This document shows positions 2,815 to 49,151 of a stretch of 64,000 nt of DNA, in pieces. The stretch is from Alteromonas arenosi (GTDB lineage Bacteria; Pseudomonadota; Gammaproteobacteria; Enterobacterales; Alteromonadaceae). Under the pieces are notes generated by a model, which saw nothing but the letters and a program-made list of their open reading frames with translations, had not been told where the DNA came from and did no database searches. The translations under genes were made by a program, and so were the position numbers. Position 1 is the first letter of the stretch, and each line of letters begins with the position of its first letter. Where the stretch lies: assembly GCF_030362855.1 (NCBI RefSeq), contig NZ_JAUCBP010000007.1, forward strand, positions 308,675 through 372,674, written 5' to 3'.

Positions 2815-3792
2815 ATGAAAGCAATTGTATGTAATGAGTTTGGTCCCGTTGATGATTTGGAATACAAAGAGTTATCTGCGTTAGAGCCGGGTAAAGGTCA
2901 GGTCGTTGTTGATATTGCAGCAGCCGGGGTTAATTTCCCTGATGGTTTATTGGTGCAAGGGTTATATCAAATGAAACCTGAGCGACCTTTTATTCCTGGT
3001 AACGAAGTAGCAGGGACAATTTCCGCTATCGGTGAAGGTGTAGAGGGATGGCACGTAGGTCAACGGGTAATTGCACTTTGCATGTTAGGTGGCTATGCCG
3101 AACAAGTTGTGGTGCCGCAAACCCACATATTACCGTTACCTGAGCAAATTCCATTTGAAGAAGCAGCAGCATTGGTAACTGCCCACGCGACGGCACATCA
3201 CGCCTTAAAACAGCGCGCCAATATCCAACCGGGCGAGACGCTAGTAGTCACAGGTGCAGCTGGTGGTACAGGCTTGGCTGCGGTCCAGATTGGTAAGGAA
3301 TTGGGCGCTACAGTTATCGCTGTTTGTTCTACGGCTGAGAAGCTCGCAACCGCTAAAGAGAACGGTGCGGATATTCTGATTAACTACACCGAAGAAAACC
3401 TTAAAGATGCAATAAAACAAGCGACCAACGGCAAGGGCGCAGATGTTGTTTACGAGTGTGTGGGTGGTGATACCTTCCATGCCTGTAGTCGCAGTATGGC
3501 TTGGAACGGTAGATTGCTAGTCATTGGTTTCGCCGGTGGTGAAATCCCAGAATTTCCAGTCAACCTATCCTTAGTCAAAGGATACTCAGTAGTGGGAGTG
3601 TTCTGGGGCTCATTTACTCAGCACCAACCGAAAGACTTTGCCGCGAATATGCAAGAGTTATTGACTTGGTATGTACAGGGTAAAGTGAAAGTCGTGGTCG
3701 ATGAATGTTTGCCGCTGTCAAAGGCTAAACAAGCGCTTGAAAAAGTCATGGGCCGAGAAGTGCGCGGTAAAATGGTGCTTAAGCCTGATTAG
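2815..3792 (+). CDS. NADPH:quinone oxidoreductase / zeta-crystallin-like MDR oxidoreductase.
   Basis: 325 aa with an MDR fold and a GAAGGTG Rossmann motif (VTGAAGGTGLAAVQIGK). A hairpin plus T-run terminator follows at 3812–3838. Confidence 0.8.
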   Translation: MKAIVCNEFGPVDDLEYKELSALEPGKGQVVVDIAAAGVNFPDGLLVQGLYQMKPERPFIPGNEVAGTISAIGEGVEGWHVGQRVIALCMLGGYAEQVVVPQTHILPLPEQIPFEEAAALVTAHATAHHALKQRANIQPGETLVVTGAAGGTGLAAVQIGKELGATVIAVCSTAEKLATAKENGADILINYTEENLKDAIKQATNGKGADVVYECVGGDTFHACSRSMAWNGRLLVIGFAGGEIPEFPVNLSLVKGYSVVGVFWGSFTQHQPKDFAANMQELLTWYVQGKVKVVVDECLPLSKAKQALEKVMGREVRGKMVLKPD

Positions 3793-3811
3793 TATTTGGT
3801 ATTAGAAAGGC

Positions 3812-3838
3812 AAAAGGCTCCCAACAGGGAGCCTTTTT
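3812..3838 (+). terminator. Rho-independent terminator after the quinone oxidoreductase gene.
   Basis: aaaaggctccc-aaca-gggagccttttt: a GC-rich stem followed by a T-run. Confidence 0.6.
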
Positions 3839-3861
3839 AGTTGCGAGTAAACAACTCGCGT

Positions 3862-4402
3862 ACCATGTTGAAACATGGTGGTAGCCGAGGCTACCGAATT
3901 AGTTGCTTAGATGCGCTCAGCGACTACAGCGGCTACTGGATTGTCAGCAAGACCTTGCTCAGCGATCCACGCTTGTAGTGTTTTACCATCCTGCTCTGGC
4001 TCCGCTAAATCCTTTTTTGGCATTTTCTTAACCAGTAGAGTCCCGGCTTCTACAGCATTGTTAAGCAATGCAGTGCGAATAAGGCTGTTACCGCCACAGC
4101 TCACACCTGAGTAGTAATCTTGAAGCTTAAGGTTGTAGTCAGACTGAACCTTTTTCATTTTCTTACGCAATTGGCCTTTGTCGTCAGCTTTAACGATAGA
4201 GCAAATGTTTTGTAGGGCTTCGTTAACGTCTGCTTGCGCAGTACCTGTGAACATTAAAGAAGCAGCGGCGATAGCGATAGAAGTTTTAACTACTTTCAAC
4301 ATGGTTAATTCCTCGGTTAATAATTAGTTGATGCGTTTGAACGGTTTTAATTAAAGCCCAAGGCGAAAAAGAAAAAAATCTGTGGGTCGATACATAGGTA
4401 TT
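3862..4402. repeat. Copy A of a ~540 bp direct repeat that carries the 131-aa secreted-protein gene.
   Basis: Near-identical to 13388–13927, with about 15 substitutions and one indel. Identity begins at accatgttgaaacatggtggtagccgagg and ends at gatacataggtat. Confidence 0.9.
3907..4302 (-). CDS. Small secreted protein, copy A (131 aa, Sec signal peptide, two Cys; possibly a DUF3718-like family).
   Basis: The N-terminus MLKVVKTSIAIAAASLMFTGTAQA|D is a classic signal peptide. An identical protein is encoded at 13433–13828. An RBS-like aggaattaacc precedes the start. Confidence 0.7.
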   Translation of the reverse strand: MLKVVKTSIAIAAASLMFTGTAQADVNEALQNICSIVKADDKGQLRKKMKKVQSDYNLKLQDYYSGVSCGGNSLIRTALLNNAVEAGTLLVKKMPKKDLAEPEQDGKTLQAWIAEQGLADNPVAAVVAERI

Positions 4403-4486
4403 TTAAATAATACCTATTGAGAGGCGTTAGCTTAAGAAGAAAATAGGGTGCACCGAATTTCAGTGCACCGCAGTGTGCTTATCGGC

Positions 4487-5254
4487 TTACCAGGCTGACA
4501 CACCGCCATCAACGGCAATGGTTTGGCCGTTCATGTAGGTGTTGCCGGGTGATAGCATCATTAACATTACGTTGACCATTTCTTGTGGATCGCCCAAGCG
4601 TTTCATCGGGCTGCCCATTGCCATTCGCGCTCGGTCTTTTTCGGAGTTAAACCCATCAACATTAAGGATATTCGTTGGGCTAAAAAATGGACATATGGCG
4701 TTACAACGCACATTTAATCGACCATATTCAATTGCTGCGGTGCGTGTTAGGCCTGCAACTGCATGTTTAGCTGCTACGTAGGCACCGCCTTTGGGCGCAC
4801 CGCCAATACCCGCCATAGAACTTACATTGAGTATATGGCCTTTACCATTCGCCAGCATGGCTTGGATCTGATATTTCATACCATACATTACGCCTTTGAC
4901 ATTAATATCAATTTGACGATCCAGAATCGCTTCAGTGAGTTCATGTATGGCAGCCGGATCATGCGCCACACCGGCATTGTTAACGGCACTGTCTAATTTG
5001 CCAAAAGTGTCGACGGCCGTCTTAACCATGGTCGCGCACTCAGCTTCAGAAGACACGTCATTTTTCATAGATGTAACGCGCTGAGCGGGGACATTGAGTT
5101 GTTTAACCGTTTCAGCCAAGCCTGCCTCGTCAATATCGCCCAAGACTAAATTGGCGCCACGGCTGGCTAGTCCAATTGCAAGTAAACGACCGAAACCGCT
5201 CGCGGCGCCTGTGATTAACACGGTGTGATCAGTAAAATCGAGTAACGGATCCAT
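4487..5254 (-). CDS. Short-chain dehydrogenase/reductase (SDR) family oxidoreductase.
   Basis: 255 aa with TGAASGFGR (TGxxxGxG) and a YVAAKHAV (YxxxK) catalytic motif. Confidence 0.85.
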   Translation of the reverse strand: MDPLLDFTDHTVLITGAASGFGRLLAIGLASRGANLVLGDIDEAGLAETVKQLNVPAQRVTSMKNDVSSEAECATMVKTAVDTFGKLDSAVNNAGVAHDPAAIHELTEAILDRQIDINVKGVMYGMKYQIQAMLANGKGHILNVSSMAGIGGAPKGGAYVAAKHAVAGLTRTAAIEYGRLNVRCNAICPFFSPTNILNVDGFNSEKDRARMAMGSPMKRLGDPQEMVNVMLMMLSPGNTYMNGQTIAVDGGVSAW

Positions 5255-5269
5255 AGTTTTGCTACCTTG

Positions 5270-6184
5270 TTATTTAATCGGGTTTTGTGTGAGGAAATTT
5301 AAAATAATATTGGCAAATACTTCGCCTTGATCTTCTTGAACAAAGTGGCCACCTTGTTCAATGGTTGTATGCGCTTGGCCCTCACATCCCGGTATGAGTT
5401 TGCGCATAATTTTATCGCCTCCAGCCGTCACCGGGTCGGAATCACTAAAGGCGCATAAGAACGGTCTATTAAAACCTTGTAAGCCTTGCCACGCTTTGCG
5501 ATTGGCATCACTGGCAGGATCATCTGGACTTACCGGCACTAAGGTGGGGAATTGTCGTGCACCTGCTTTGTACGATTCATCGGGGTAGGGCGCATCGTAG
5601 GCTGCATAAATTTCAGGTGTTAGCGGGGTTACCGTAGCACCTTTTATAATTCCGGCCGCAGGAAATACGTCGACCTCTTGAGAAAAAGCCTTCCATTTAA
5701 AGAACGCTTCTCCAGGAGGGTGATCGCCGGTCGGTAACATGGTATTAGACGCAACAACACGGGCAAATCGCTCAGGTTGCTCACCGACTAAACGCAGGCC
5801 TAATAAGCCTCCCCAATCCTGACAAACTAAAGTGATATCAGTTAGTTGTAGCTGATCAAGCAATTGAGTAACCCAATCAAGATGGCGTTGATAGGTATAA
5901 TCAGATCGTTCAGTGGGTTTATCTGAGCGCCCAAAGCCAATTAGGTCAGGCACGATCACGCGATATCCCGCCGCAGTCAGTGGCGTAATCATTTTGCGAT
6001 ACAAATAGGCCCAGCTAGGTTCACCGTGTTGCATCCAGATTACTTCACCATCACGCGGGCCTTCATCGATGAAATGCATGCGTAATTGGCCGCCTTCAAA
6101 GTCGTCCACTTCGATGTAATGAGGCGTAAAATCGTACCCAGGTAAGTTACTAAAACGTTCGTCTGGAGTCCGCAGTGCTTGCAT
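5270..6184 (-). CDS. Haloalkane dehalogenase (HLD-I, DhlA-like alpha/beta hydrolase).
   Basis: 304 aa. The N-terminal region (RTPDERFSNLPGYDFTPHYIEVD…WMQHGEPSWAYLYRKMI…GFGRSDKP) closely resembles Xanthobacter DhlA. The nucleophile and halide-stabilising DW are present in VCQDWGG. The catalytic His is present in GGHFVQED. Confidence 0.8.
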   Translation of the reverse strand: MQALRTPDERFSNLPGYDFTPHYIEVDDFEGGQLRMHFIDEGPRDGEVIWMQHGEPSWAYLYRKMITPLTAAGYRVIVPDLIGFGRSDKPTERSDYTYQRHLDWVTQLLDQLQLTDITLVCQDWGGLLGLRLVGEQPERFARVVASNTMLPTGDHPPGEAFFKWKAFSQEVDVFPAAGIIKGATVTPLTPEIYAAYDAPYPDESYKAGARQFPTLVPVSPDDPASDANRKAWQGLQGFNRPFLCAFSDSDPVTAGGDKIMRKLIPGCEGQAHTTIEQGGHFVQEDQGEVFANIILNFLTQNPIK

Positions 6185-6420
6185 AGTTTGTTACTCACTT
6201 TTTGGCGTTCATACATTGCCATTAAACAAATAAGCTCAAGAGGGTCAATGAATTTAAATCAGACTAAAAGTACGGAAATATCCCTAGCCCGCATCGGTAA
6301 ACGAATTGTTAATAGTATTGATTTAATTTATTCAGAAATATAAAACCAATAAACTTCACTGATTGGTGGACAGGTCATACCATGCTCTTCAATTAATGCA
6401 TAAGTAGAAGAGTTTCGTTT

Positions 6421-8520
6421 ATGAGCCAATCAGCTGTTGCCTATTCCGTTCAACAATCAGTCGCGTCGTTAATAATGCACAATCCACCGGTTAATGCGCT
6501 GGGTAAAGCCGTTCGAGTGGGGCTTGTCGAGGGAATTGAAAAAGCCCTAGCCGATGATGCGGTAAAAGTAATTGTGATCACATCAGATATTGGATTCTTT
6601 AGCGGCGGTGCTGATATATCGGAATTTTCTACGGGCGATTTCGAGCCAAACTTATCTACTGTGGTATTACACGCCATTGAACAATCGACTAAGCCTGTTG
6701 TGGCGGTATTGCCGGGGCCAGCGTTTGGTGGTGGTCTAGAGTTGGCATTGGCGTGTCACTATCGCATCACGCACAAGGCTAACAAGGTTGGGTTACCAGA
6801 AGTCAATCTGGGCATTCTTCCAGGCGCCGGCGGTACACAGCGTCTTCCTCGTTTGGTTCCGGTACAACAAGCGTTAGACATGGTTGTGTCTGGTCGTCCG
6901 CAATCAGTTACTAAGCTGCCAAGTGTTTTTGCAGAAATTGTCGATTCAGTAGAGCAACTTCCCGCTGCAACCCAAACCTTCATCGAGAACTTGGATTTAA
7001 CCGCGGATATTCCACGTACATGCGACATCACCGTTGATTCAGCGAGCTTTGATCCTGCATTGTTTGAGCAATATGCCGAAGGTATTAAGAAACAAGCACG
7101 CGGTTTCTTTGCGCCATTTAACTGTATCAAAGCCGTACAAGCAGCTACTGAGCTACCATTCCCGGAAGGCCTACAACGTGAAGGTGAATTGTTCTTAGAA
7201 TGCATGCAAACATCACAAGCACGTGCTCAGCAACATTTCTTTTTTGCCGAACGTGCCGCCGGGCATGTGCAAGACTACGACAAATCAACGCCTGTCCGCG
7301 ACATCAAGAAAGTCGCTGTTATCGGTGCCGGTACCATGGGTGGCGGTATTGCAATGAACTTTGCTAATGCTGGCATTCCGGTAACTATGCTCGAACTTCA
7401 ACCGGAAGCCTTGGAGAAAGGCTTAAGTGTCATCCGAGGCAACTACGAGCGCACTGCCAAAAAAGGTAAGTTGACAGCAGAAGATGTTGAAAAGCGCATG
7501 TCATTACTGACGGGTACAACCAGCTATGCGGATTTGGCCGATGTTGATTTAGTTATCGAAGCCGTATTCGAGAAGATGGAAGTCAAGCAAGCGGTGTTTA
7601 AATCGCTCGACGAAGTTTGTAAACCCGGTGCAATTTTAGCGACAAATACTTCAACACTCGACATTAATGAAATTGCTGCGGCAACAAGTCGTCCGCAAGA
7701 CGTTATTGGCTTGCACTTCTTCTCACCTGCAAACGTGATGAAGCTGCTTGAAATTGTTAAAGCAGAGCACACAGCACCTGAAGTTATCAAGACTTGCATG
7801 CAAATGGCCAAAATCATTCGAAAAGTCGCCGTATTAGTGGGTGTGTGTTTCGGTTTTGTGGGTAACCGTATGATCGAAGCCTATGGGCGTGAAGCAAACC
7901 GATTGATGCTAGAAGGCGCAACACCAGAGCAGGTTGACAAAGTCATTTATAAGTTCGGTTTACCTATGGGGCCATTTACCATGGGTGATATGGCGGGCTT
8001 GGATATTGGCTATTTTGTGCGTCAGTCACGTAAAGCCTTTATCGAACACGATCCAAGTTATTGTGTGGTAGCCGATAAATTGGTTGAAGATGGTCGTGTG
8101 GGGCTGAAAGCAGGTAAGGGCGTTTATCTTTATGAGCCTGGCAATCGTCAACCCATTCCAGACGAGAGCGTGCTTGAAATAGCGAAGCAAGAAGCTGCGC
8201 GTCTTGGTATCGAACAACGCAAAATTAGCGACCAAGAAATCCTTGAGCGCTGCATCTATCCATTGATTAACGAAGGCGCTCTGATCCTCGAAGAGGGCAT
8301 TGCTGCCAAAGCCAGCGATATTGACGTTATCTACGTGTATGGCTATGGCTTCCCAGTGTATCGCGGTGGCCCAATGAAGTTCGCTGACGAGATTGGTTTA
8401 GATAAAGTTCTCACAGCAATGAATAAATATCGCGAGCAATTAGGCGACTACGGTGAAGCGTGGTTTAAGCCTGCCCCCTTGTTAGAAAAGCTCGCTCAGC
8501 AAGGTAAAACTTTTAACTAA
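6421..8520 (+). CDS. Fatty-acid oxidation complex alpha subunit (FadB/FadJ-like fused enoyl-CoA hydratase/3-hydroxyacyl-CoA dehydrogenase).
   Basis: 699 aa with an N-terminal crotonase fold ([11 protein letters not shown]…[11 protein letters not shown]) and a C-terminal 3-HAD domain with the NAD-binding motif [12 protein letters not shown]. Confidence 0.85.
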
Positions 8521-8560
8521 TACATTTCAAGGCTTGAATCGAGCCTTACTAGGAGGACAC

Positions 8561-9742
8561 ATGCGTCAGGCAGTTATCGTATCAACCGCACGAAGCCCAA
8601 TCGGGCGTGCGTATAAAGGCGCTTTAAACAACCTTGAAGCACCGTCACTAGGCGGGCATTCGATTGCCGCTGCAGTAAAGCGTGCAGGTCTTGAAGGGCA
8701 GGAAGTCGATGACGTGATTATGGGTTCAGCCTTAACCCAAGGTTCAGGCTCGATGAACATTGGTCGCTTAGCCGGATTAGCTGGCGGTTTGCCGGTTACG
8801 GTTTCCGGCATGACGCTTGATCGCCAATGTAGCTCTGGCATGTACGCCATTGCCACTGCTGCACAAAGCATTATGACAGGCAATACCGACATTATGGTTG
8901 CCGGTGGTTTGGATTCAATTTCATTGGTGCAAAACAAGCACATGAATACCTTCCGAATGACCGATCCTGCATTAATCGCGAAGCACAAAGATATCTATAT
9001 GCCGATGCTGCAAACCGCCGAAGTTGTAGCGAAGCGCTATAACGTGAGTCGCGACGCGCAAGATGAGTATGGTTATCAAAGCCAGATGCGCACCGCAGCA
9101 GCACAAGCGGCAGGCAAATTTAATGATGAAATTGTACCGATCACCGCTAACAAGGCGATTGTTGATAAAGAGACGGGCGATGTAAGTTTTGCCGAGGTGA
9201 CGCTTGCAAAAGATGAAGGCAATCGCGCCGAAACCACGCTTGAAGGTTTACAAGGGCTGAATGCGGTTATCGAAGGCGGCTGTATTACAGCAGGTAACGC
9301 CAGTCAGTTGTCAGACGGTTCAAGTGCGAGCGTTCTGATGAGCGATGTTGAAGCGGAGAAACGCGGTCTAGACCCGCTTGGCGCCTTTAAAGGTATTGCG
9401 GTTGCGGGTTGTGAGCCGGATGAAATGGGTATTGGTCCGGTCTTCGCAGTGCCTAAATTACTTAAGCAGCACGGGTTAACGATGGATGACATCGGTCTGT
9501 GGGAGCTGAATGAAGCCTTCGCGGTTCAGGTTTTATATTGCCGTGACAAGCTGGGTATTCCTGATGAGTTGCTCAACGTAAACGGCGGGGCAATCTCTAT
9601 TGGACACCCCTATGGCATGAGTGGTGCCAGAATGGTGGGGCATGCCTTAATTGAAGGAAAACGACGTGGTGCAAAATATGTAGTGTGTACCATGTGTATC
9701 GGTGGCGGCATGGGCGCCGCTGGTTTATTTGAAGTGTTATAA
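8561..9742 (+). CDS. Acetyl-CoA C-acyltransferase (thiolase, FadA-like).
   Basis: Thiolase active-site motifs are present ([28 protein letters not shown]). The start is placed at the ATG at 8561, preceded by AGGAGG at 8551–8556. The ORF-track start at 8534 lacks an RBS. Confidence 0.9.
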
Positions 9743-9757
9743 AACGGTTATACGACG

Positions 9758-11557
9758 ATGCAAAATTACAAAGCACCACAACGAGATACGTTGTTTACTT
9801 TATATGAATTATTGGGTTTTGAATCCCATTATGCAGATCTGGGCTTCGAAGAGGTCAGCAATGATCTTGTGACCGCTATTTTCTCTGAGGCGGCAAAATT
9901 TGCAGAAAATACTCTAGCACCAATCAATGCGGTTGGTGACGAGGAAGGTTGTGGCTTCGATAATGGCGTAGTGACTACACCTACAGGTTTCAAAGAAGCC
10001 TATCAGCAGTATGTAGAAGGCGGCTGGCCATCAATGGCGCACCCCGAAGAGTACGGCGGTCAAGCACTACCTTACTCACTGGCTACATCTATGGCGGAGT
10101 GGTTCTCAGGTGCTAACCACTCGTGGGCAATGTACCCAGGGTTGAGTCAAGGCTGTATGGAAACCTTGAAGGCGCACGGTACCGACAAGCAACGCGAGAT
10201 GTTCTTACACAAATTGGTTGAAGGTAGCTGGACCGGCACCATGTGTTTGACTGAACCACACTGTGGCTCTGATTTGGGTATGCTTAAGTGTAAAGCAGAA
10301 CCCAATGATGACGGCACGTACTCACTGACAGGCACTAAGATCTTTATCTCAGCGGGTGAACACGACATGTCTGAAAATATCGTGCATATCGTCTTAGCAC
10401 GTTTGCCAGACGCACCGGCAGGCACTAAAGGTATCTCATTGTTTATTGTGCCTAAGTATCACGTTGACGAGAACGGCGAGAAAGGTGAACGCAATACAGT
10501 TGTTTGCGGTTCGATTGAACACAAAATGGGTATCAAAGGCAGCGCAACATGTGTGATGAACTTTGATGGCGCTAAAGGTCACCTGATTGGTGAGCCTAAT
10601 CGCGGCCTCAATTGTATGTTTACCTTTATGAACATGGCGCGTATCGGCACGGGTATGGAAGGTTTATCAGCTATAGAAGCGGCATTCCAGGGGGCCTTGG
10701 CATACGCCAAAGATCGTTTGCAGTTCCGCTCATTAACCGGTCGTAAGAACGAATCAGGCCCAGCTGACCCAATCATCGTACATCCAGACGTGCGCCGCAT
10801 GTTGTTGACGCAAAAATCATTACGTGAGGGTTGTCGCGCACTGGCCATTTATTGCATGAAAATGGTTGATGTGACCTTGTACGAAAAAGATGCTGAGAAG
10901 CGTCAGATTGCTGATGCTAAGTTGGCCTTGCTAACGCCAATCGTTAAAGCATTCTTAACTGAAACCGCCCAAGAGTGCACCAGCTATGGTATGCAGGTGT
11001 ATGGAGGTCACGGCTACATTAAAGAGTGGGGCATGGAGCAACTTGCTCGTGATACACGTATTTGTACCATGTACGAAGGTACAACAGGTATCCAAGCGAT
11101 TGACCTATTGGCGCGTAAAGTGGTCGGTAGTCAAGGCAAGTTGCTACAGGTATTCACTCAAGAGATCCGCACCTATTGTGCGAGCTTACGCGACAAGCAG
11201 CAGTTTAATGCGTGGGCTAACGCGGTAGAAAGTCATGTCGACGAGTGGGAGCAGCTCACTAACGACATCATGAAATCTGCCGCTAATAATCCTGATGAAT
11301 TGGGTGCCGCGGCGGTAGACTACTTGATGTATTCTGGTTATGTATCAGTTTCGTATTTCTGGCTGCAAATGGCTGTCACAGCACAACAGAAGCTGGATGA
11401 AGGCAGCACAGAAGTTGACTTCTATCAGGCGAAGTTGCAATCAGCGCAGTTCTACTTTGATCGTATGCTTACTCGCACACGTTCATTGGTTTCAGCGATT
11501 CACTCAGGTGCTGACAACCTAATGAGTATGAGCGAAGAAGCTTTCTATCAAGGTTAA
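9758..11557 (+). CDS. Long (~600 aa) acyl-CoA dehydrogenase with a C-terminal extension domain.
   Basis: 599 aa with an ACAD core (…CLTEPHCGSDLG…YEGTTGIQAIDL…) plus a ~150 aa C-terminal domain, as in FadE-like long ACADs. Confidence 0.85.
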   Translation: MQNYKAPQRDTLFTLYELLGFESHYADLGFEEVSNDLVTAIFSEAAKFAENTLAPINAVGDEEGCGFDNGVVTTPTGFKEAYQQYVEGGWPSMAHPEEYGGQALPYSLATSMAEWFSGANHSWAMYPGLSQGCMETLKAHGTDKQREMFLHKLVEGSWTGTMCLTEPHCGSDLGMLKCKAEPNDDGTYSLTGTKIFISAGEHDMSENIVHIVLARLPDAPAGTKGISLFIVPKYHVDENGEKGERNTVVCGSIEHKMGIKGSATCVMNFDGAKGHLIGEPNRGLNCMFTFMNMARIGTGMEGLSAIEAAFQGALAYAKDRLQFRSLTGRKNESGPADPIIVHPDVRRMLLTQKSLREGCRALAIYCMKMVDVTLYEKDAEKRQIADAKLALLTPIVKAFLTETAQECTSYGMQVYGGHGYIKEWGMEQLARDTRICTMYEGTTGIQAIDLLARKVVGSQGKLLQVFTQEIRTYCASLRDKQQFNAWANAVESHVDEWEQLTNDIMKSAANNPDELGAAAVDYLMYSGYVSVSYFWLQMAVTAQQKLDEGSTEVDFYQAKLQSAQFYFDRMLTRTRSLVSAIHSGADNLMSMSEEAFYQG

Positions 11558-11564
11558 TTGGAAT

Positions 11565-12506
11565 ATGCCTGAACATAGCGATATTCAATCTTGTTATGTT
11601 CAGGCGAAAGGTCTGCGACTGCATTATTTAATGCGGTCGCCCATTTCTACAGAAACGCAAACTCCAACACTTATATTTCTGCACGGTTTTCCTGAGTATT
11701 CAGGCGTTTGGCATCATCAACTCGACTTCTTTGGTCAAATAGCACGCGCTATCGCACTAGATTTACCAGGTTATAACCGTAGTGAAGGTCCTGGTGCGTT
11801 AGCTGAATTTAGCGTACCGAATTTAGTAGAAATAGTAGCCGAATTTATTCGTCAGGTCAGTGATGGTCAGCCAGTGGTGTTGGTGGCGCATGATTGGGGG
11901 GGAGCGCTGGCATGGCCGTTGGCTGCTCGCTATCCTGAATTACTCAGTCATTTAATCATACTCAACGCTGCACATCCGAGTACTTTTACCCGCGAAATGA
12001 TGCAAAACCCAAAACAGCGTGCGATGAGTGATTACATTCATACGTTCTTATCAAGCGATGCTGAAAAAGCTCTGGCAGATGATGATTTCGCATTGCTCAA
12101 GCAACATTCGATAACGCATGTTAAGGGTGGCATCAGCCCCGAGTTAGAAACGGGTTATCGCGATTCTTGGCAATGCGACGGGGTCTTGACCCGTATGCTT
12201 AATTACTACCGCGCTATGCCACAGTTATTTCCGCGAGAGGGCAGCGACACGAGTAGCCTAGACAAGCAAAACGGCGGGCCAACCAAGCAGCTTGCTGATT
12301 TTAAAATCCCACAGATATATATTCGAGTTCCCACGCTTGTATTATGGGGCGAGCAAGATAGTGCGTTTGATATTAGCGTATTGGATGGATTATCAGAATA
12401 CATTGATGACTACACTGAGCAACGCTTTCCAGATGCAACACATTGGCTGCACCATGAAGAGCCAGAAGCTATCTCATCAGCAATTAGCCAGTTTTTGGCA
12501 CGCTGA
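11565..12506 (+). CDS. Alpha/beta-fold hydrolase (epoxide-hydrolase-like).
   Basis: 313 aa with HGFPE, an HDWGG nucleophile elbow, and a C-terminal His (ATHWLHHEEPE). Confidence 0.8.
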   Translation: MPEHSDIQSCYVQAKGLRLHYLMRSPISTETQTPTLIFLHGFPEYSGVWHHQLDFFGQIARAIALDLPGYNRSEGPGALAEFSVPNLVEIVAEFIRQVSDGQPVVLVAHDWGGALAWPLAARYPELLSHLIILNAAHPSTFTREMMQNPKQRAMSDYIHTFLSSDAEKALADDDFALLKQHSITHVKGGISPELETGYRDSWQCDGVLTRMLNYYRAMPQLFPREGSDTSSLDKQNGGPTKQLADFKIPQIYIRVPTLVLWGEQDSAFDISVLDGLSEYIDDYTEQRFPDATHWLHHEEPEAISSAISQFLAR

Positions 12507-12647
12507 TCTTCTATTTTTTTAAAACGATTAAGGTAAATACTTTACAGATCTGATCAGTTCTGTAAACTCTCGGCGTGCGAGGATTTGCAGATTTATCGCG
12601 ATGGATTGCAGTAAATAATAATAATGAATATACCCGGTGCGCAAAAA

Positions 12648-13325
12648 ATGAAAACCACAATAGTAGTATCGCTATTACTGTTTGCCAGTAGTAATCTATT
12701 TTTAACTCGAACGGTCCATGCGGCTTTAATCACTTTCGATAACACCACAGCGTCGACCACAAATCCTTATTTGCGGGCGACGAAAACCTATTTAGAAGAC
12801 GACTTTTTATTTACTTTTTTGGGTAAAGATACCAACTACCTGGACAGTAAATACGTTGGCTTCGATGGACTAACTGAATTCAATGGTGACGTTTTGCAAT
12901 TTGGTTGCTGTCGCTACTCAACGGTTACTATCACACATAAAGACAATCTGGCGTTTAACTTAAACAGTTTCTACAGTGGGACAACAAAGTCGAGCCCAAA
13001 TGACCAAGGCGACTTGTTTTTCAGAGCCACCTATAGCAACGGTAGCATTGTTGACAGTCAACGTTTTATTGCAAATCGGCGCATGCTACAAACGTTTGCA
13101 CAATTGCAAAATATTACATCGCTGATTATTAGTCGAAATTTATACGATGCGGTAATTGAAAACAGTTTTCCGGTTATCGATGATTTAGATTTGAGTCTCT
13201 ATACAGCACCGCGAATTGCAGCATTAAATTTTACGCCTCAACTCGCCATATCGAATGAACTAACCGAAGTGCCTGCGATGGCCATGATGTTAATCGGAGT
13301 TTTAGCGCTTCGACGGCGCAGGTAA
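12648..13325 (+). CDS. Secreted protein with a PEP-CTERM-like C-terminal sorting signal.
   Basis: The signal peptide is MKTTIVVSLLLFASSNLFLTRTVHA. The C-terminus is TEVPAMAMMLIGVLALRRRR, which reads as a PEP-like motif, a TM helix and an Arg cluster. The start is chosen at the second in-frame ATG at 12648; the track ORF begins at 12624. Confidence 0.45.
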   Translation: MKTTIVVSLLLFASSNLFLTRTVHAALITFDNTTASTTNPYLRATKTYLEDDFLFTFLGKDTNYLDSKYVGFDGLTEFNGDVLQFGCCRYSTVTITHKDNLAFNLNSFYSGTTKSSPNDQGDLFFRATYSNGSIVDSQRFIANRRMLQTFAQLQNITSLIISRNLYDAVIENSFPVIDDLDLSLYTAPRIAALNFTPQLAISNELTEVPAMAMMLIGVLALRRRR

Positions 13326-13340
13326 ACTAAGACCAAAAAG

Positions 13341-13364
13341 AAAGGCTCCCTTGCGGGAGCCCTT
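13341..13364 (+). terminator. Hairpin after the PEP-CTERM-like gene; a weak terminator.
   Basis: aaaggctccc-ttgc-gggagccctt, with a poor T-run. Confidence 0.35.
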
Positions 13365-13387
13365 CGAGGAAGCAGATCGCTCTGCCG

Positions 13388-13927
13388 ACCATGTTGAAAC
13401 ATGGTGGTAGCCGAGGCTACCGAATTAGTTGCTTAGATGCGCTCAGCGACTACAGCGGCTACTGGGTTGTCAGCAAGACCTTGCTCTGCAATCCACGCTT
13501 GCAGCGTTTTACCATCCTGCTCTGGCTCCGCTAAATCCTTTTTTGGCATTTTCTTAACCAGTAGAGTCCCGGCTTCTACAGCATTGTTAAGCAATGCAGT
13601 GCGAATCAGGCTGTTACCGCCACAGCTCACACCTGAATAGTAATCTTGAAGTTTAAGGTTGTAGTCAGACTGAACCTTTTTCATTTTCTTACGCAATTGG
13701 CCTTTATCGTCAGCTTTAACGATAGAGCAAATGTTTTGTAGCGCTTCGTTAACGTCTGCTTGCGCAGTACCTGTGAACATTAAAGAAGCAGCGGCGATAG
13801 CGATAGAAGTTTTAACTACTTTCAACATGGTTAATTCCTCGGTTAATAATTAGTTGATGTGTTTGAACGGTTTTAATTAAAGCCCAAGGTGAAAAAGAAA
13901 AAAATCTGTGGGTCGATACATAGGTAT
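13388..13927. repeat. Copy B of the ~540 bp direct repeat.
   Basis: Near-identical to 3862–4402. The two copies are 9.5 kb apart and in the same orientation. Confidence 0.9.
13433..13828 (-). CDS. Small secreted protein, copy B (131 aa, identical in protein sequence to copy A).
   Basis: The translation is identical to 3907–4302. The ~12 nucleotide differences inside the CDS are all synonymous third-position changes. Confidence 0.7.
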   Translation of the reverse strand: MLKVVKTSIAIAAASLMFTGTAQADVNEALQNICSIVKADDKGQLRKKMKKVQSDYNLKLQDYYSGVSCGGNSLIRTALLNNAVEAGTLLVKKMPKKDLAEPEQDGKTLQAWIAEQGLADNPVAAVVAERI

Positions 13928-13975
13928 ATGGTTTAATACTTATAAGAATTTGCTAACTGAATTGAGAAATGATTT

Positions 13976-46541: not shown

Positions 46542-49151
46542 ATGGCAGAAGTATCCATTGAAAAACTCGCCAGTGATATTGGCACAACGGTTGACCGTCT
46601 GTTAACTCAGTTCAAAGACGCCGGTATTACTAAAAGTGCGTCTGATAGCGTGACTGAAGACGAAAAGCGTCAGCTGTTAGACTTTTTAAGCAAGCAGCAT
46701 GGCGGCACTGGCTCTGAAGCGCCCAAGCGCATGACATTGCAGCGCAAAACTACCAGCACATTAAGTGTTGGTAAGTCCAAAGCGGTCAAGGTTGAAGTAC
46801 GCAAAAAGCGTACTTACGTCAAGCGTACCGAAGTTGAAGAGCAGCGTTTAGCTGAAGAGGAAGCGCGTCGCAAGGCTGAAGAAGCAGAGGCGCGTTTGAA
46901 AGCTGAAAAAGAGGCGGCTGAAGCAGCTAAGAAAGCGGCTGAAGAGAAGGCGCGCAAAGCGGAAGAAGCGCGTAAGGCACAAGAAGCTGAACGTGCAGCG
47001 CGCGCTGAAAAGGCAAAGAAAGAGGCGGAAGAACGCAAAGCAGCAGAATCGGCACTGACGCCTGAAGAAAAAGCTGAACAAGAAGCGGCACGCAAAGAAG
47101 AAGAGCGACTTAAGAAGCAGCAGGAAGAAGAAGCACAGCGCAAGCTTGAAGAAGACGCTAAACGCGCTGCTGATGAAGCACGCAAGCTAGCGGAAGAGAA
47201 CGAACGTCGCTGGAAGGAAGAGGAAGAACGTCGTAAGCGCGAGGAAGCTGAAGAAGTTCACTTGCACTCCAACCGTTATGCTCAAGAAGCGGAAGACGAA
47301 GAAGACATGCAAGTTGAGCGCTCTTCACGTCGCCGCAAAAAGTCGCGCAAGAATGCCGGTGAAGACTTAAAACACAGCTTTAATAAGCCAGCACAACCCG
47401 TTGAGCGTGTTGTTAAACTGGGTGAAACCATCACTGTAGGTGAGTTGGCGAGTCGTTTGGCAGTTAAAGCGAACGAAGTTATCAAGACCATGATGAAAAT
47501 GGGCGAGATGGCAACGATCAACCAAGTACTTGATCAAGACACTGCTGTACTTGTGATTGAAGAAATGGGTCACAAGTATGAGTTGGTGAATGACAACGCT
47601 TTAGAAGAAGAATTGATTGCAGATTCTAACTCGGGTGAGAAAACGACTCGTGCGCCGGTTGTAACCATTATGGGTCACGTTGACCACGGGAAAACGTCAC
47701 TGCTTGACCATATTCGTCGCGCTAAAGTAGCAGACGGCGAAGCGGGTGGTATTACCCAGCATATCGGTGCATACAGCGTAGAAACTGATAAAGGTCGAAT
47801 CGCATTCTTGGATACGCCTGGACACGCAGCATTTACAGCAATGCGTGCGCGTGGTGCTACCGCAACTGATATCGTTGTATTGGTTGTGGCGGCTGATGAC
47901 GGCGTTATGCCACAGACTAAAGAGGCGGTTCAGCACTCGCGTGCAGCGGGCGTACCATTGATTGTTGCGGTCAACAAAATGGATAAAGAGACAGCTGACC
48001 CCGATCGCGTAAAAACCGAGCTTTCACAATTAGAAGTTATTTCTGAAGAGTGGGGCGGTGAGCACCAGTTCGTCAATGTATCTGCCAAAACGGGTATGGG
48101 GATTGATGAATTACTCGATGCTATTACCTTGCAAGCAGAGCTACTTGATTTACAAGCGGTTAGCAAAGGCGCAGGTCGCGGTATCGTTATTGAGTCACGC
48201 TTGGATAAAGGTCGTGGTCCAGTTGCATCGGTATTGGTGCAGCAAGGTGAGTTGCGTACTGGTGACATTTTACTGTGTGGCGAAGAGTACGGTCGTGTGC
48301 GTGCGATGCGCGATGAGAACGGTAAAGAAGTTAAGGTTGCAGGTCCATCAACGCCAGTAGAAGTACTCGGCCTTTCAGGCGTACCTATTGCTGGTGAAGA
48401 CGCGTTAGTGGTACAAGACGAGCGTAAAGCGCGTGAAGTTGCCGCTAAACGTCACGCTAAACAGCGTGAGCTGAAACTAGCCAAGCAGCAAAAAGCGAAA
48501 CTGGAAAACATGTTCGCTAACATGGAAGCCGGTGATGTGAGCGAGTTGAACGTTGTACTTAAAGCTGACGTTCAAGGCTCTGTAGAAGCGATTTCTGAAT
48601 CACTTATCAAGCTGTCTACTAGCGAAGTTAAGGTTAACATCGTCGGTAGCGGTGTGGGTGGTATCACGGAAACTGACGCCAGCTTAGCTGCGGCTTCGAG
48701 TGCAATTATCGTAGGCTTTAACGTTCGTGCAGATGCTACAGCACGCCGCGTGATTGAAGCTGAAGAAATTGACTTGCGATACTACAGCGTAATCTACAAC
48801 TTGATTGACGAAGTTAAGCAAGCGATGAGCGGTATGCTTGCGCCAGAGTTTAAACAAGAAATCATGGGACTTGCCGAAGTGCGTGATGTGTTTAAATCAC
48901 CGAAACTGGGTGCCATTGCAGGTTGTATGGTTACCGAAGGTACGGTTAAACGCAGTAACCCAATCCGCGTATTGCGCGACAACGTCGTAATTTACGAAGG
49001 TGAACTTGAGTCATTGCGTCGCTTTAAAGACGACGTACAAGAAGTTCGCAACGGTATGGAGTGTGGTATCGGCGTGAAGAACTACAATGATGTAAAAGTC
49101 GGCGACCAGATTGAGGTCTTCGAGGTTGTTGAAGTTAAACGCGAAATCTAG
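46542..49151 (+). CDS. infB: Translation initiation factor IF-2.
   Basis: 869 aa with an N-terminal Glu/Ala/Lys-rich low-complexity region, G-domain motifs ([18 protein letters not shown]) and a C-terminal beta-barrel. Confidence 0.95.

Follow-up and report, generated by a model that had tools for sequence, protein, structure and literature searches.

The analysed window is a stretch of 64,000 nucleotides (64 kb) from Alteromonas arenosi (contig NZ_JAUCBP010000007.1, positions 308,675 to 372,674). A repeat search of this window revealed one large repeat family, consisting of two direct copies that begin at 3862 and 13388 with an offset of 9526, and no further repeat of comparable size. Each copy (hereafter A and B) carries a gene for the same 131-amino-acid protein of the family DUF3718, and the two copies lie on either side of a block of catabolic genes. 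The features of the two units and of the segment between them are listed in Table 1.

Table 1. Features of the two DUF3718 units and of the intervening segment (window positions; ADH, alcohol dehydrogenase; ORF, open reading frame; UTR, untranslated region)
Feature	Unit A or single position	Unit B	Strand	Description
Repeat, high-identity core	3862–4401	13388–13927		540 bp each, from base-by-base comparison; copy A read as gene-conversion tract
DUF3718 gene	3907–4302	13433–13828	-	131 amino acids, signal-peptide-like N-terminus, ankyrin-like predicted fold; A adjoins SDR and ADH genes; B lies on the LysR side, protein identical to A
Palindrome	4394–4417	13920–13943		ATAGGTAT-N8-ATACCTAT at upstream edge of unit, candidate operator; B has 1 mismatch to A
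Promoter and 5'UTR	4303–4393	13829–13919	-	T-tract, conserved GCTTTAATTA, GAGGAA Shine-Dalgarno
Translation initiation region (TIR)	4294–4305	13820–13831	-	ACC-ATG-TTG-AAA
Hairpin H1	3880–3895	13406–13421	-	GGTAGCC-UC-GGCTACC, between stop codon and hairpin H2
Anti-start motif in 3'UTR	3862–3873	13388–13399	-	TTTCAACATGGT; in A exact reverse complement of 4294–4305, loop and 3' arm of H2 (3862–3879); in B inside H2 (13388–13405)
3'UTR RNA module	3806–3874	13335–13400	-	Motif, stem-loop SL1, Rho-independent terminator (B: 13365–13340); covariance model R1: A 27.4 bits, E 0.003; B 30.7 bits, E 5e-4
Conserved catabolic block	4487–12506			SDR (-), haloalkane-dehalogenase-family hydrolase (-), FadB/FadJ-like (+), thiolase (+), long acyl-CoA dehydrogenase (+), alpha/beta hydrolase (+); from Pfam, NCBIfam, synteny
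233-amino-acid secreted-protein ORF	12624–13325		+	PEP-CTERM-like C-terminus; between last block gene and DUF3718 copy B

Base-by-base comparison of the two cores gave 12 substitutions and no indels (97.78% identity over 540 bp), with a longest identical run of 117 bp. Ten of the substitutions fall within the 396-nucleotide coding sequence (CDS), where each is a synonymous change at a third codon position (7 transitions and 3 transversions); the remaining two are located 32 and 62 nucleotides upstream of the ATG, and the 45 nucleotides past the stop codon are free of differences. The first-pass annotation of this DNA had described direct repeats of about 97% identity with about 15 substitutions and one indel, about 12 of the substitutions being in the CDS. 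Its description of the repeats, of the purely synonymous coding changes and of the identical proteins held, while its counts had to be corrected. Beyond the core, a weaker similarity between A and B continues upstream to the palindrome and downstream over a terminator hairpin of the GGCTCCC...GGGAGCC type.

By the Nei-Gojobori method (S = 89.5, N = 303.5, Sd = 10, Nd = 0), dS between the copies was 0.121 and dN was 0. With the observed 7:3 mix of transitions and transversions, the probability that ten neutral changes would all be synonymous was 3.7e-6, which bears out the earlier claim of strong purifying selection on both copies. About 2–5 replacements would be expected at the dN/dS usual for the family (0.05–0.15), so the observed zero lies at the conservative end and is not extreme. 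The noncoding parts of the repeat differ less (2 of 144 positions) than the synonymous sites do (10 of 89.5; Fisher P = 0.0015), which agrees with a function in the noncoding parts. Because all coding differences are synonymous and the promoter, ribosome-binding site (RBS), and terminator are intact in both copies, the comparison supports the reading of both DUF3718 genes as intact paralogues under purifying selection.

The DUF3718 copies within and between genomes

Proteins of the window were mapped onto 76 related loci. The nearest relatives within the Alteromonadaceae were the metagenome-assembled genome (MAG) OZ252110.1, with 89% amino acid identity, followed by Alteromonas flava and A. 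facilis. The conserved gene order is TonB receptor–MaoC–LysR–(SRPBCC)–DUF3718 (1–5 tandem copies)–hydrolase–acyl-CoA dehydrogenase–thiolase–FadB–dehalogenase–SDR–DUF3718–ADH–APH–acyl-CoA dehydrogenase–phosphatase. The complete order or part of it was found in genomes named Alteromonas, Aliiglaciecola, Aestuariibacter, Fluctibacter, and Paraglaciecola (at least five genera) as well as in the MAG, and DUF3718 copies flank the block in loci L001, L004, L008, L019, L007 with L010, L061, L038 with L043, and L086. Since the order with both flanking copies is shared across genera, synteny shows the block with a DUF3718 gene on each side to be the ancestral arrangement. DUF3718 units in the relatives also occur in up to 5 tandem copies and as copies hundreds of kilobases away with no fad genes nearby; in the MAG chromosome, dispersed copies are located at 0.65 and 3.47 Mb (L002 and L003) and the fad locus at 4.0 Mb. 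The contigs L038, L039, L043, and L046, labelled 'Flavobacterium sp. W21_SRS_FM6', carry an Alteromonadaceae-type locus and four near-identical DUF3718 copies; this assembly is probably mislabelled or contaminated.

Within one genome, the two flanking copies share 100% of amino acids in the window and in W21_SRS_FM6, 96.9% in MAG OZ252110, 94.7% in A. flava, 91.6% in A. facilis, 87% in Aliiglaciecola litoralis, 83% in Fluctibacter halophilus, and 71% in Aestuariibacter salexigens. The window copies share only 85–89% with those of the MAG and A. flava. In a neighbour-joining tree, grouping followed the genome rather than the position of the copies, and those dispersed in the MAG and W21_SRS_FM6 joined the group of their own genome. 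Synonymous divergence was 0.12 within the window vs. 0.6–0.87 between the window and the MAG, with no preference for the copy in the same position.

The edge of the homogenised tract was located from segment identities in the alignment of the units (alignment A3). From the palindrome to hairpin H2, window copies A and B were 93–100% identical, compared to 61–89% between species. Over the next 55 nucleotides, which comprise SL1 and the terminator, the identity of A and B fell to 51%, whereas window B shared 83% with A. flava B and 71% with MAG B. Beyond the terminator, window A and MAG A shared 62% (the end of the ADH gene), A and B 16%, and other pairs about 20%. The similarity of A and B thus ends abruptly 45 nucleotides past the stop codon, and further on each copy resembles the copy in the same position of other species. 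In several genomes, including that of the window, paralogues are therefore closer to each other than to positional orthologues, and in the window this signal switches sharply at the edge of the tract. From the ancestral positions, the similarity within genomes, and the positional flanks beyond an abrupt edge, we infer that a core of about 540 bp has been repeatedly homogenised by homologous, presumably RecA-dependent, gene conversion between old paralogues. The two units, each composed of the upstream palindrome, promoter, DUF3718 gene, and structured 3'UTR, would accordingly hold old, fixed positions on either side of the catabolic cluster, and the 12 differences between them would date from the time after the last conversion, during which purifying selection acted on the protein.

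A recent lineage-specific duplication that placed a new copy beside the block, with no gene conversion involved, would be expected to show a dS such as the 0.12 observed here. We consider it improbable: both positions are occupied in the closest relatives, similarity within genomes recurs independently in at least five other genomes, and orthology is positional just outside the core, where the 62% shared by the A copies of window and MAG and the 83% shared by the B copies of window and A. flava stand against 51% and 16% for window A and B. The combination of positional flanks with a homogenised core argues both against a simple recent duplication and against an assembly artefact, that is, one gene assembled twice or a mis-joined repeat. 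Repeats of this size can confuse short-read assemblers, and the A. facilis locus is in fact split between contigs at its DUF3718 genes (L005 and L013). The window copies, however, differ at 12 sites and have different flanks, each of which matches the syntenic flank of relatives, including a complete chromosome, and an artefact is thus extremely improbable.

The direct repeats had also been proposed to enable recombination by which the 9.5-kb segment between them would be gained, lost, or amplified as a cassette. At 97.78% identity with identical runs of up to 117 bp, the repeats can recombine, and a crossover between them is mechanically possible; to this extent, the proposal stands. Rearrangements near DUF3718 genes do occur. 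In Alteromonas sp. A079 (L072), unrelated genes come after the LysR side, which has two DUF3718 copies, the fad block does not occupy its usual place, and a 354-amino-acid ORF with a weak match to IS200/Y1 transposases lies between two DUF3718 copies (L072:10531–11595). In Paraglaciecola sp. MB-3u-78, an IS66 element adjoins the copy on the ADH side (L065:6098–8411). Against a cassette, the block and both flanking copies are conserved across genera, and a LysR-DUF3718-ADH junction with the block excised was found in none of the 76 related loci. Pfam detected only catabolic enzymes in the block and no integrase or transposase genes. The G+C content of the block (0.45–0.50) is like that of the flanks, with the exception of the insertion at 12624–13325 (about 0.40). 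The outer flanks also belong to lipid metabolism and are part of the same conserved neighbourhood. We therefore regard gain or loss of the 9.5-kb segment as a unit as very improbable. As read from these sequences, only non-reciprocal gene conversion has left a trace, and deletion or amplification none. The first-pass annotation had allowed that the repeat might prove to be a common dispersed element unrelated to the block, which is true in part, as the family is multi-copy and dispersed in relatives, yet both flanking positions are conserved.

The 3'UTR module and its complementarity to the start region

Past the stop codon, both copies carry the RNA motif UUUCAACAUGGU (3873–3862 and 13399–13388), the exact complement of their own ACC-AUG-UUG-AAA at the TIR. 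A perfect complement of at least 10 nucleotides to the gene's own TIR was present within 150 nucleotides past the stop codon in 100 of 118 distinct copies, compared to 10 of 2360 shuffles. The match is typically 11–13 nucleotides long and covers ACC-AUG-UUG-AA(A). The motif is located 3–125 nucleotides past the stop and is followed by SL1 and the terminator with its U-tract. Its 9-nucleotide core TCAACATGG was invariant in 42 diverse sequences, with flanks that vary between genera; likewise, TTCAACATGG was found with at most one mismatch in 102 of the 118 copies, preceded by sequence that varies between genera. SL1 begins 11–13 nucleotides from the start of the motif in 81 of 100 sequences, is represented by 57 distinct stem sequences, and has a median minimum free energy (MFE) z-score of -3.9. 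In the locus L042 (3702–3850), about four tandem repeats of a unit of about 24 nucleotides (TAAGTAGTCTTGAGCGGACGTTTA) were observed between the DUF3718 stop codon and its 3' module.

When 42 modules were aligned with plain MAFFT and analysed with RNAalifold, only part of the terminator was recovered, as the alignment was not consistent with the structure; this alignment was replaced by a hand-structured seed and a covariance model. This model (R1) was built from 13 Alteromonas sequences and searched against 1.49 Mb. All of its 92 matches were on the gene strand; nearly every match came immediately 3' of a DUF3718 gene, and two followed a different gene. In the covariance-model alignment (A6), 99.6% of cells pair, 12 of the 13 pairs are changed on both sides, none of 500 shuffles reached this level, and controls with the alignment slid gave 52.5% pairing or less, all counts being inflated by the fitting of A6 to the structure of the model. 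The two exceptional matches are located at the ADH-side position, with no DUF3718 gene, in Alteromonas sp. H39 (L045:18841–18905) and A. antoniana (L058:19010–19074), and the ORF that precedes the orphan module encodes a different secreted protein of 91 amino acids (L045:18553–18828). Persistence of the module behind a non-DUF3718 ORF in two Alteromonas species suggests that it is selected for itself and may be able to act in trans.

Hairpin H2 has the sequence ACCAUGU-UUCA-ACAUGGU, and the anti-start motif forms its last 12 nucleotides. In Alteromonas flava, H1 reads GGTGAC...GTCACC, both sides of the stem being changed (alignment A3). The possibility that the 3' hairpins are dispersed elements of the repetitive extragenic palindrome (REP) type was rejected, as H2 and the palindrome occur in the window at the two units only. 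Rfam 15 contained no family matching the window region 3700–4600 or L076 9850–10600, where only noise below the gathering score was obtained. Taken together, the alignments and the model strongly support a conserved, structured 3'UTR module with an anti-start motif, which is undescribed so far and a new finding of this analysis.

Three lines of observation connect the motif with the start region. Leu2 is encoded by TTG in 71 of 71 distinct CDSs and Lys3 by AAA in 69 of 70, while other conserved leucine columns use 5–6 codons with a codon entropy of 2.1–2.3 bits. Synonymous variation restarts at codon 4, exactly where the complementarity between TIR and motif ends. The few TIR variants, in which ATC, ACT, or GCC precedes the ATG, result from transitions, and G.U pairs preserve their pairing. 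A homologue of 47% identity that starts with ATG-TTA-AAG has no motif, and homologues of 52% and 61% identity keep both TIR and motif. The link between motif and start region is drawn from the invariant TTG-AAA, these G.U-preserving variants, and the joint absence or retention in the homologues. In the predicted MFE fold of the full 551-nucleotide mRNA, the TIR (-3 to +9) pairs with the motif in both window copies.

These data point to a mechanism in which the 3'UTR motif (segment UUCAACAUGG) would pair with the start codon region of DUF3718 mRNAs (segment ACCAUGUUGAA) and thereby limit translation. The pairing could occur in cis, or in trans through a processed fragment of about 60 nucleotides acting on all paralogues, and the resulting negative feedback would act on the summed output of all DUF3718 copies. 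We put such pairing with negative feedback at about even odds. A seed-target pair common to all copies would make the total output insensitive to copy number, and copies that drift would be penalised by the need for matching, which would fit concerted evolution. In its fullest form, the proposal is that a module of about 60 nucleotides with seed, stem-loop, and terminator closes each DUF3718 mRNA and that its seed, being invariant, blocks the start codons of all of these mRNAs in the cell; feedback across the paralogues would keep the total output constant, the matching need would help to explain the concerted evolution, and the orphan modules of L045 and L058 would be dedicated trans repressors. 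This form can be offered only tentatively.

The motif could instead act otherwise, as a recognition site for a protein or RNase or as part of a stabilising hairpin, its complementarity to the TIR being a historical by-product, for example if the gene start had long ago been duplicated in inverted orientation. Local pairing of the motif with a TIR-like arm upstream of it (ACCATGT or ACCATGTGAAAC) occurs in the window and in many Alteromonas copies, and this alternative would also fit the lack of covariation between TIR and motif and the copies that keep the TIR without the motif. On the other hand, the upstream arm varies between genera while the core of the motif is invariant, the 11–13 nucleotides of complementarity stop exactly at codon 4, and known base-pairing 3'UTR RNAs have the same arrangement of seed, stem-loop, and terminator (PMC7398697). 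A role other than pairing with the start region is thus rather unlikely. Inverted repeats of 11–13 bp at the start codon and in the 3'UTR might also serve as DNA inversion sites for phase variation of the coding segment, and known invertible segments are indeed flanked by inverted repeats of such length. The inverted state was seen in no copy of any locus: every motif close to an RBS is followed by an ORF starting MLK, and 9 odd cases were 3'UTR motifs read on the other strand. With only one orientation between the repeats and no recombinase gene linked to the units, the inverton idea was rejected and deserves next to no credence.

The best overall explanation, with a probability of about 0.75, is that of old twin units homogenised by gene conversion and provided with a conserved anti-start 3'UTR element. 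Several points weigh against it, besides the inflated pairing counts mentioned above. Gene conversion is read here from sequence patterns, and with one genome to go by, a similar picture would result if DNA of a related strain had replaced one copy. Both the TIR and the motif are nearly invariant and show no true covariation; when this was sought in distant homologues, those of 43–50% identity carried neither the TIR sequence nor the motif and were therefore uninformative. The invariant TTG-AAA could alternatively reflect a constraint on translation initiation. In 16 of the 118 copies, the motif is absent and the TIR is kept, and in the window the motif is partly sequestered in H2, the left arm of which mimics the TIR. 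Expression of both copies, processing of the 3'UTR, and repression are predictions made from the sequence. As to the protein, the ankyrin-like assignment described below rests on a predicted model with a predicted local distance difference test (pLDDT) score of 80, and the Pfam Ank and Ank_2-5 sequence models did not match it even at E <= 10.

Upstream elements, protein, and neighbouring genes

Sites of the GGTAT-N8-ATACC type with at most three mismatches were found in 46 of 121 family copies, mostly about 107–150 nucleotides upstream of the ATG. The blocks of the promoter and 5'UTR are conserved across species (alignment A3), with two differences between A and B. A simple scan of the gene strand upstream of DUF3718 gave no match to a consensus sigma-70 promoter, and none of the sigma-54, sigma-E, LysR T-N11-A, FadR, or PsrA-type sites fitted the upstream region by eye.

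The 131-amino-acid protein matched Pfam DUF3718 (PF12514) over residues 33–100 with 72 bits, above the cut-off of 22.5, so the earlier suggestion of a DUF3718-like protein proved right. By inspection, its N-terminus, MLKVVKTSIAIAAASLMFTGTAQA|D, resembles a signal peptide, as had also been proposed, and residues 1–19 are disordered in the predicted model. This model (pLDDT 80) is similar in three dimensions to solved ankyrin (ANK) domains. Weak multi-stretch phmmer matches (P0224, P0229, and P0262) are true Pfam Ank proteins and provide an indirect link. A full HMMER scan yielded only 142 clusters at 50% identity, a sequence search of PDB gave only noise (E > 0.3) and no solved structure, an exact-sequence look-up returned no record, and the literature searched contained no paper mentioning DUF3718. 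By prediction, the protein would be a small exported domain resembling ankyrin repeats; it has no known partner, and only its position links it to the fad cluster. A 78%-identical DUF3718 protein was found in a eukaryotic transcriptome assembly (P0039, a eukprot TRINITY transcript). Its source is presumably an associated bacterium, which hints at high transcription of such genes.

The catabolic block contains, as first annotated, haloalkane-dehalogenase and beta-oxidation genes: the haloalkane-dehalogenase-family hydrolase matched NF002043 with 481 bits, and Pfam identified the beta-oxidation enzymes. The long acyl-CoA dehydrogenase has 599 amino acids, the FadB/FadJ-like protein is a multifunctional enzyme, and the alpha/beta hydrolase is the second one in the block. 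On the left, the outer flank encodes a histidine phosphatase, an acyl-CoA dehydrogenase, an APH-type kinase, and a zinc-dependent ADH; on the right, it encodes an SRPBCC protein, a LysR regulator, a MaoC dehydratase, and a TonB-dependent receptor. A stretch of 35 nucleotides in the FadB-like gene (7780–7814) recurs with 77% identity about 40 kb away (47475–47509), which hints at a second FadB/FadJ paralogue in the window.

The ORF of 233 amino acids adjoining unit B has a signal-peptide-like start, a PEP-CTERM-like end (EVPAMAMMLIGVLALRRRR), and no Pfam match; a weak match to NF038120 (E 0.002) was below the cut-off. Its G+C content is about 0.40, compared to 0.47–0.50 nearby. None of the 76 related loci contains this ORF, nor does the closest relative (L086), and a lineage-specific insertion is therefore probable.

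Comparison with known systems

OppZ and CarZ are autoregulatory 3'UTR-derived small RNAs of Vibrio cholerae (Hoyos et al., 2020, eLife, PMC7398697). By analogy with these RNAs or with icaR, the DUF3718 3'UTR element is likely autoregulatory. Like OppZ and CarZ, it is located at the mRNA 3' end, shares the Rho-independent terminator of the mRNA, and contains a short conserved region complementary to its own transcript, so negative feedback would be expected. OppZ and CarZ target internal cistrons or leader regions of operons, with dependence on RNase E and Hfq shown (PMC7398697). The DUF3718 element, in contrast, would target the start codon of its own monocistronic gene and those of all paralogues, and the two kinds of element have no sequence or Rfam relationship. 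In the icaR mRNA of Staphylococcus aureus, an anti-Shine-Dalgarno motif of the 3'UTR pairs with the mRNA's own ribosome-binding region, and cleavage is by RNase III. The DUF3718 3'UTR is similarly complementary to its own TIR, with long-range 5'–3' pairing predicted in the MFE structure. Unlike in icaR, the complement covers ACC-AUG-UUG-AAA, the duplex has only 12 bp, and the host is a gammaproteobacterium. The RNA element is sharply defined and testable, with an anti-start-codon motif of 11–13 nucleotides in about 100 gene copies from several marine genera. If functional, it would add dosage control of a multi-copy gene family to the scope of 3'UTR-based autoregulation and would represent a compact, portable feedback module.

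Small periplasmic ankyrin-repeat proteins exist in bacteria, for example AnkB of Pseudomonas aeruginosa. Compared with ankyrin-repeat proteins, the DUF3718 protein has only about three repeat-like units and a conserved Cys pair, does not match Pfam Ank, and has no partner gene, such as that for a catalase, linked to it. An exported, ankyrin-like protein would be the first structural label, so far a predicted one, for DUF3718.

Concerted evolution by gene conversion is known for duplicated bacterial genes such as tufA/tufB in enterobacteria and the rRNA operons. In the same way, the DUF3718 paralogues occupy fixed, separate loci, those of one genome resemble each other more than orthologues from different species do, homogenisation is confined to the shared unit, and strong purifying selection acts on the product. 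What appeared to be a mobile cassette may thus be recast as a clean natural case of concerted evolution between dispersed bacterial paralogues, with the edge of the conversion tract mapped; the process is a known one, and the example, from a little-known gene family, is new. It differs from tufA/tufB and the rRNA operons in that DUF3718 is a small, predicted secreted protein with no assigned function and that its copy number varies (1–5 tandem copies and dispersed ones). Furthermore, the two DUF3718 copies bracket a catabolic cluster, and the tract includes putative regulatory RNA and DNA elements.

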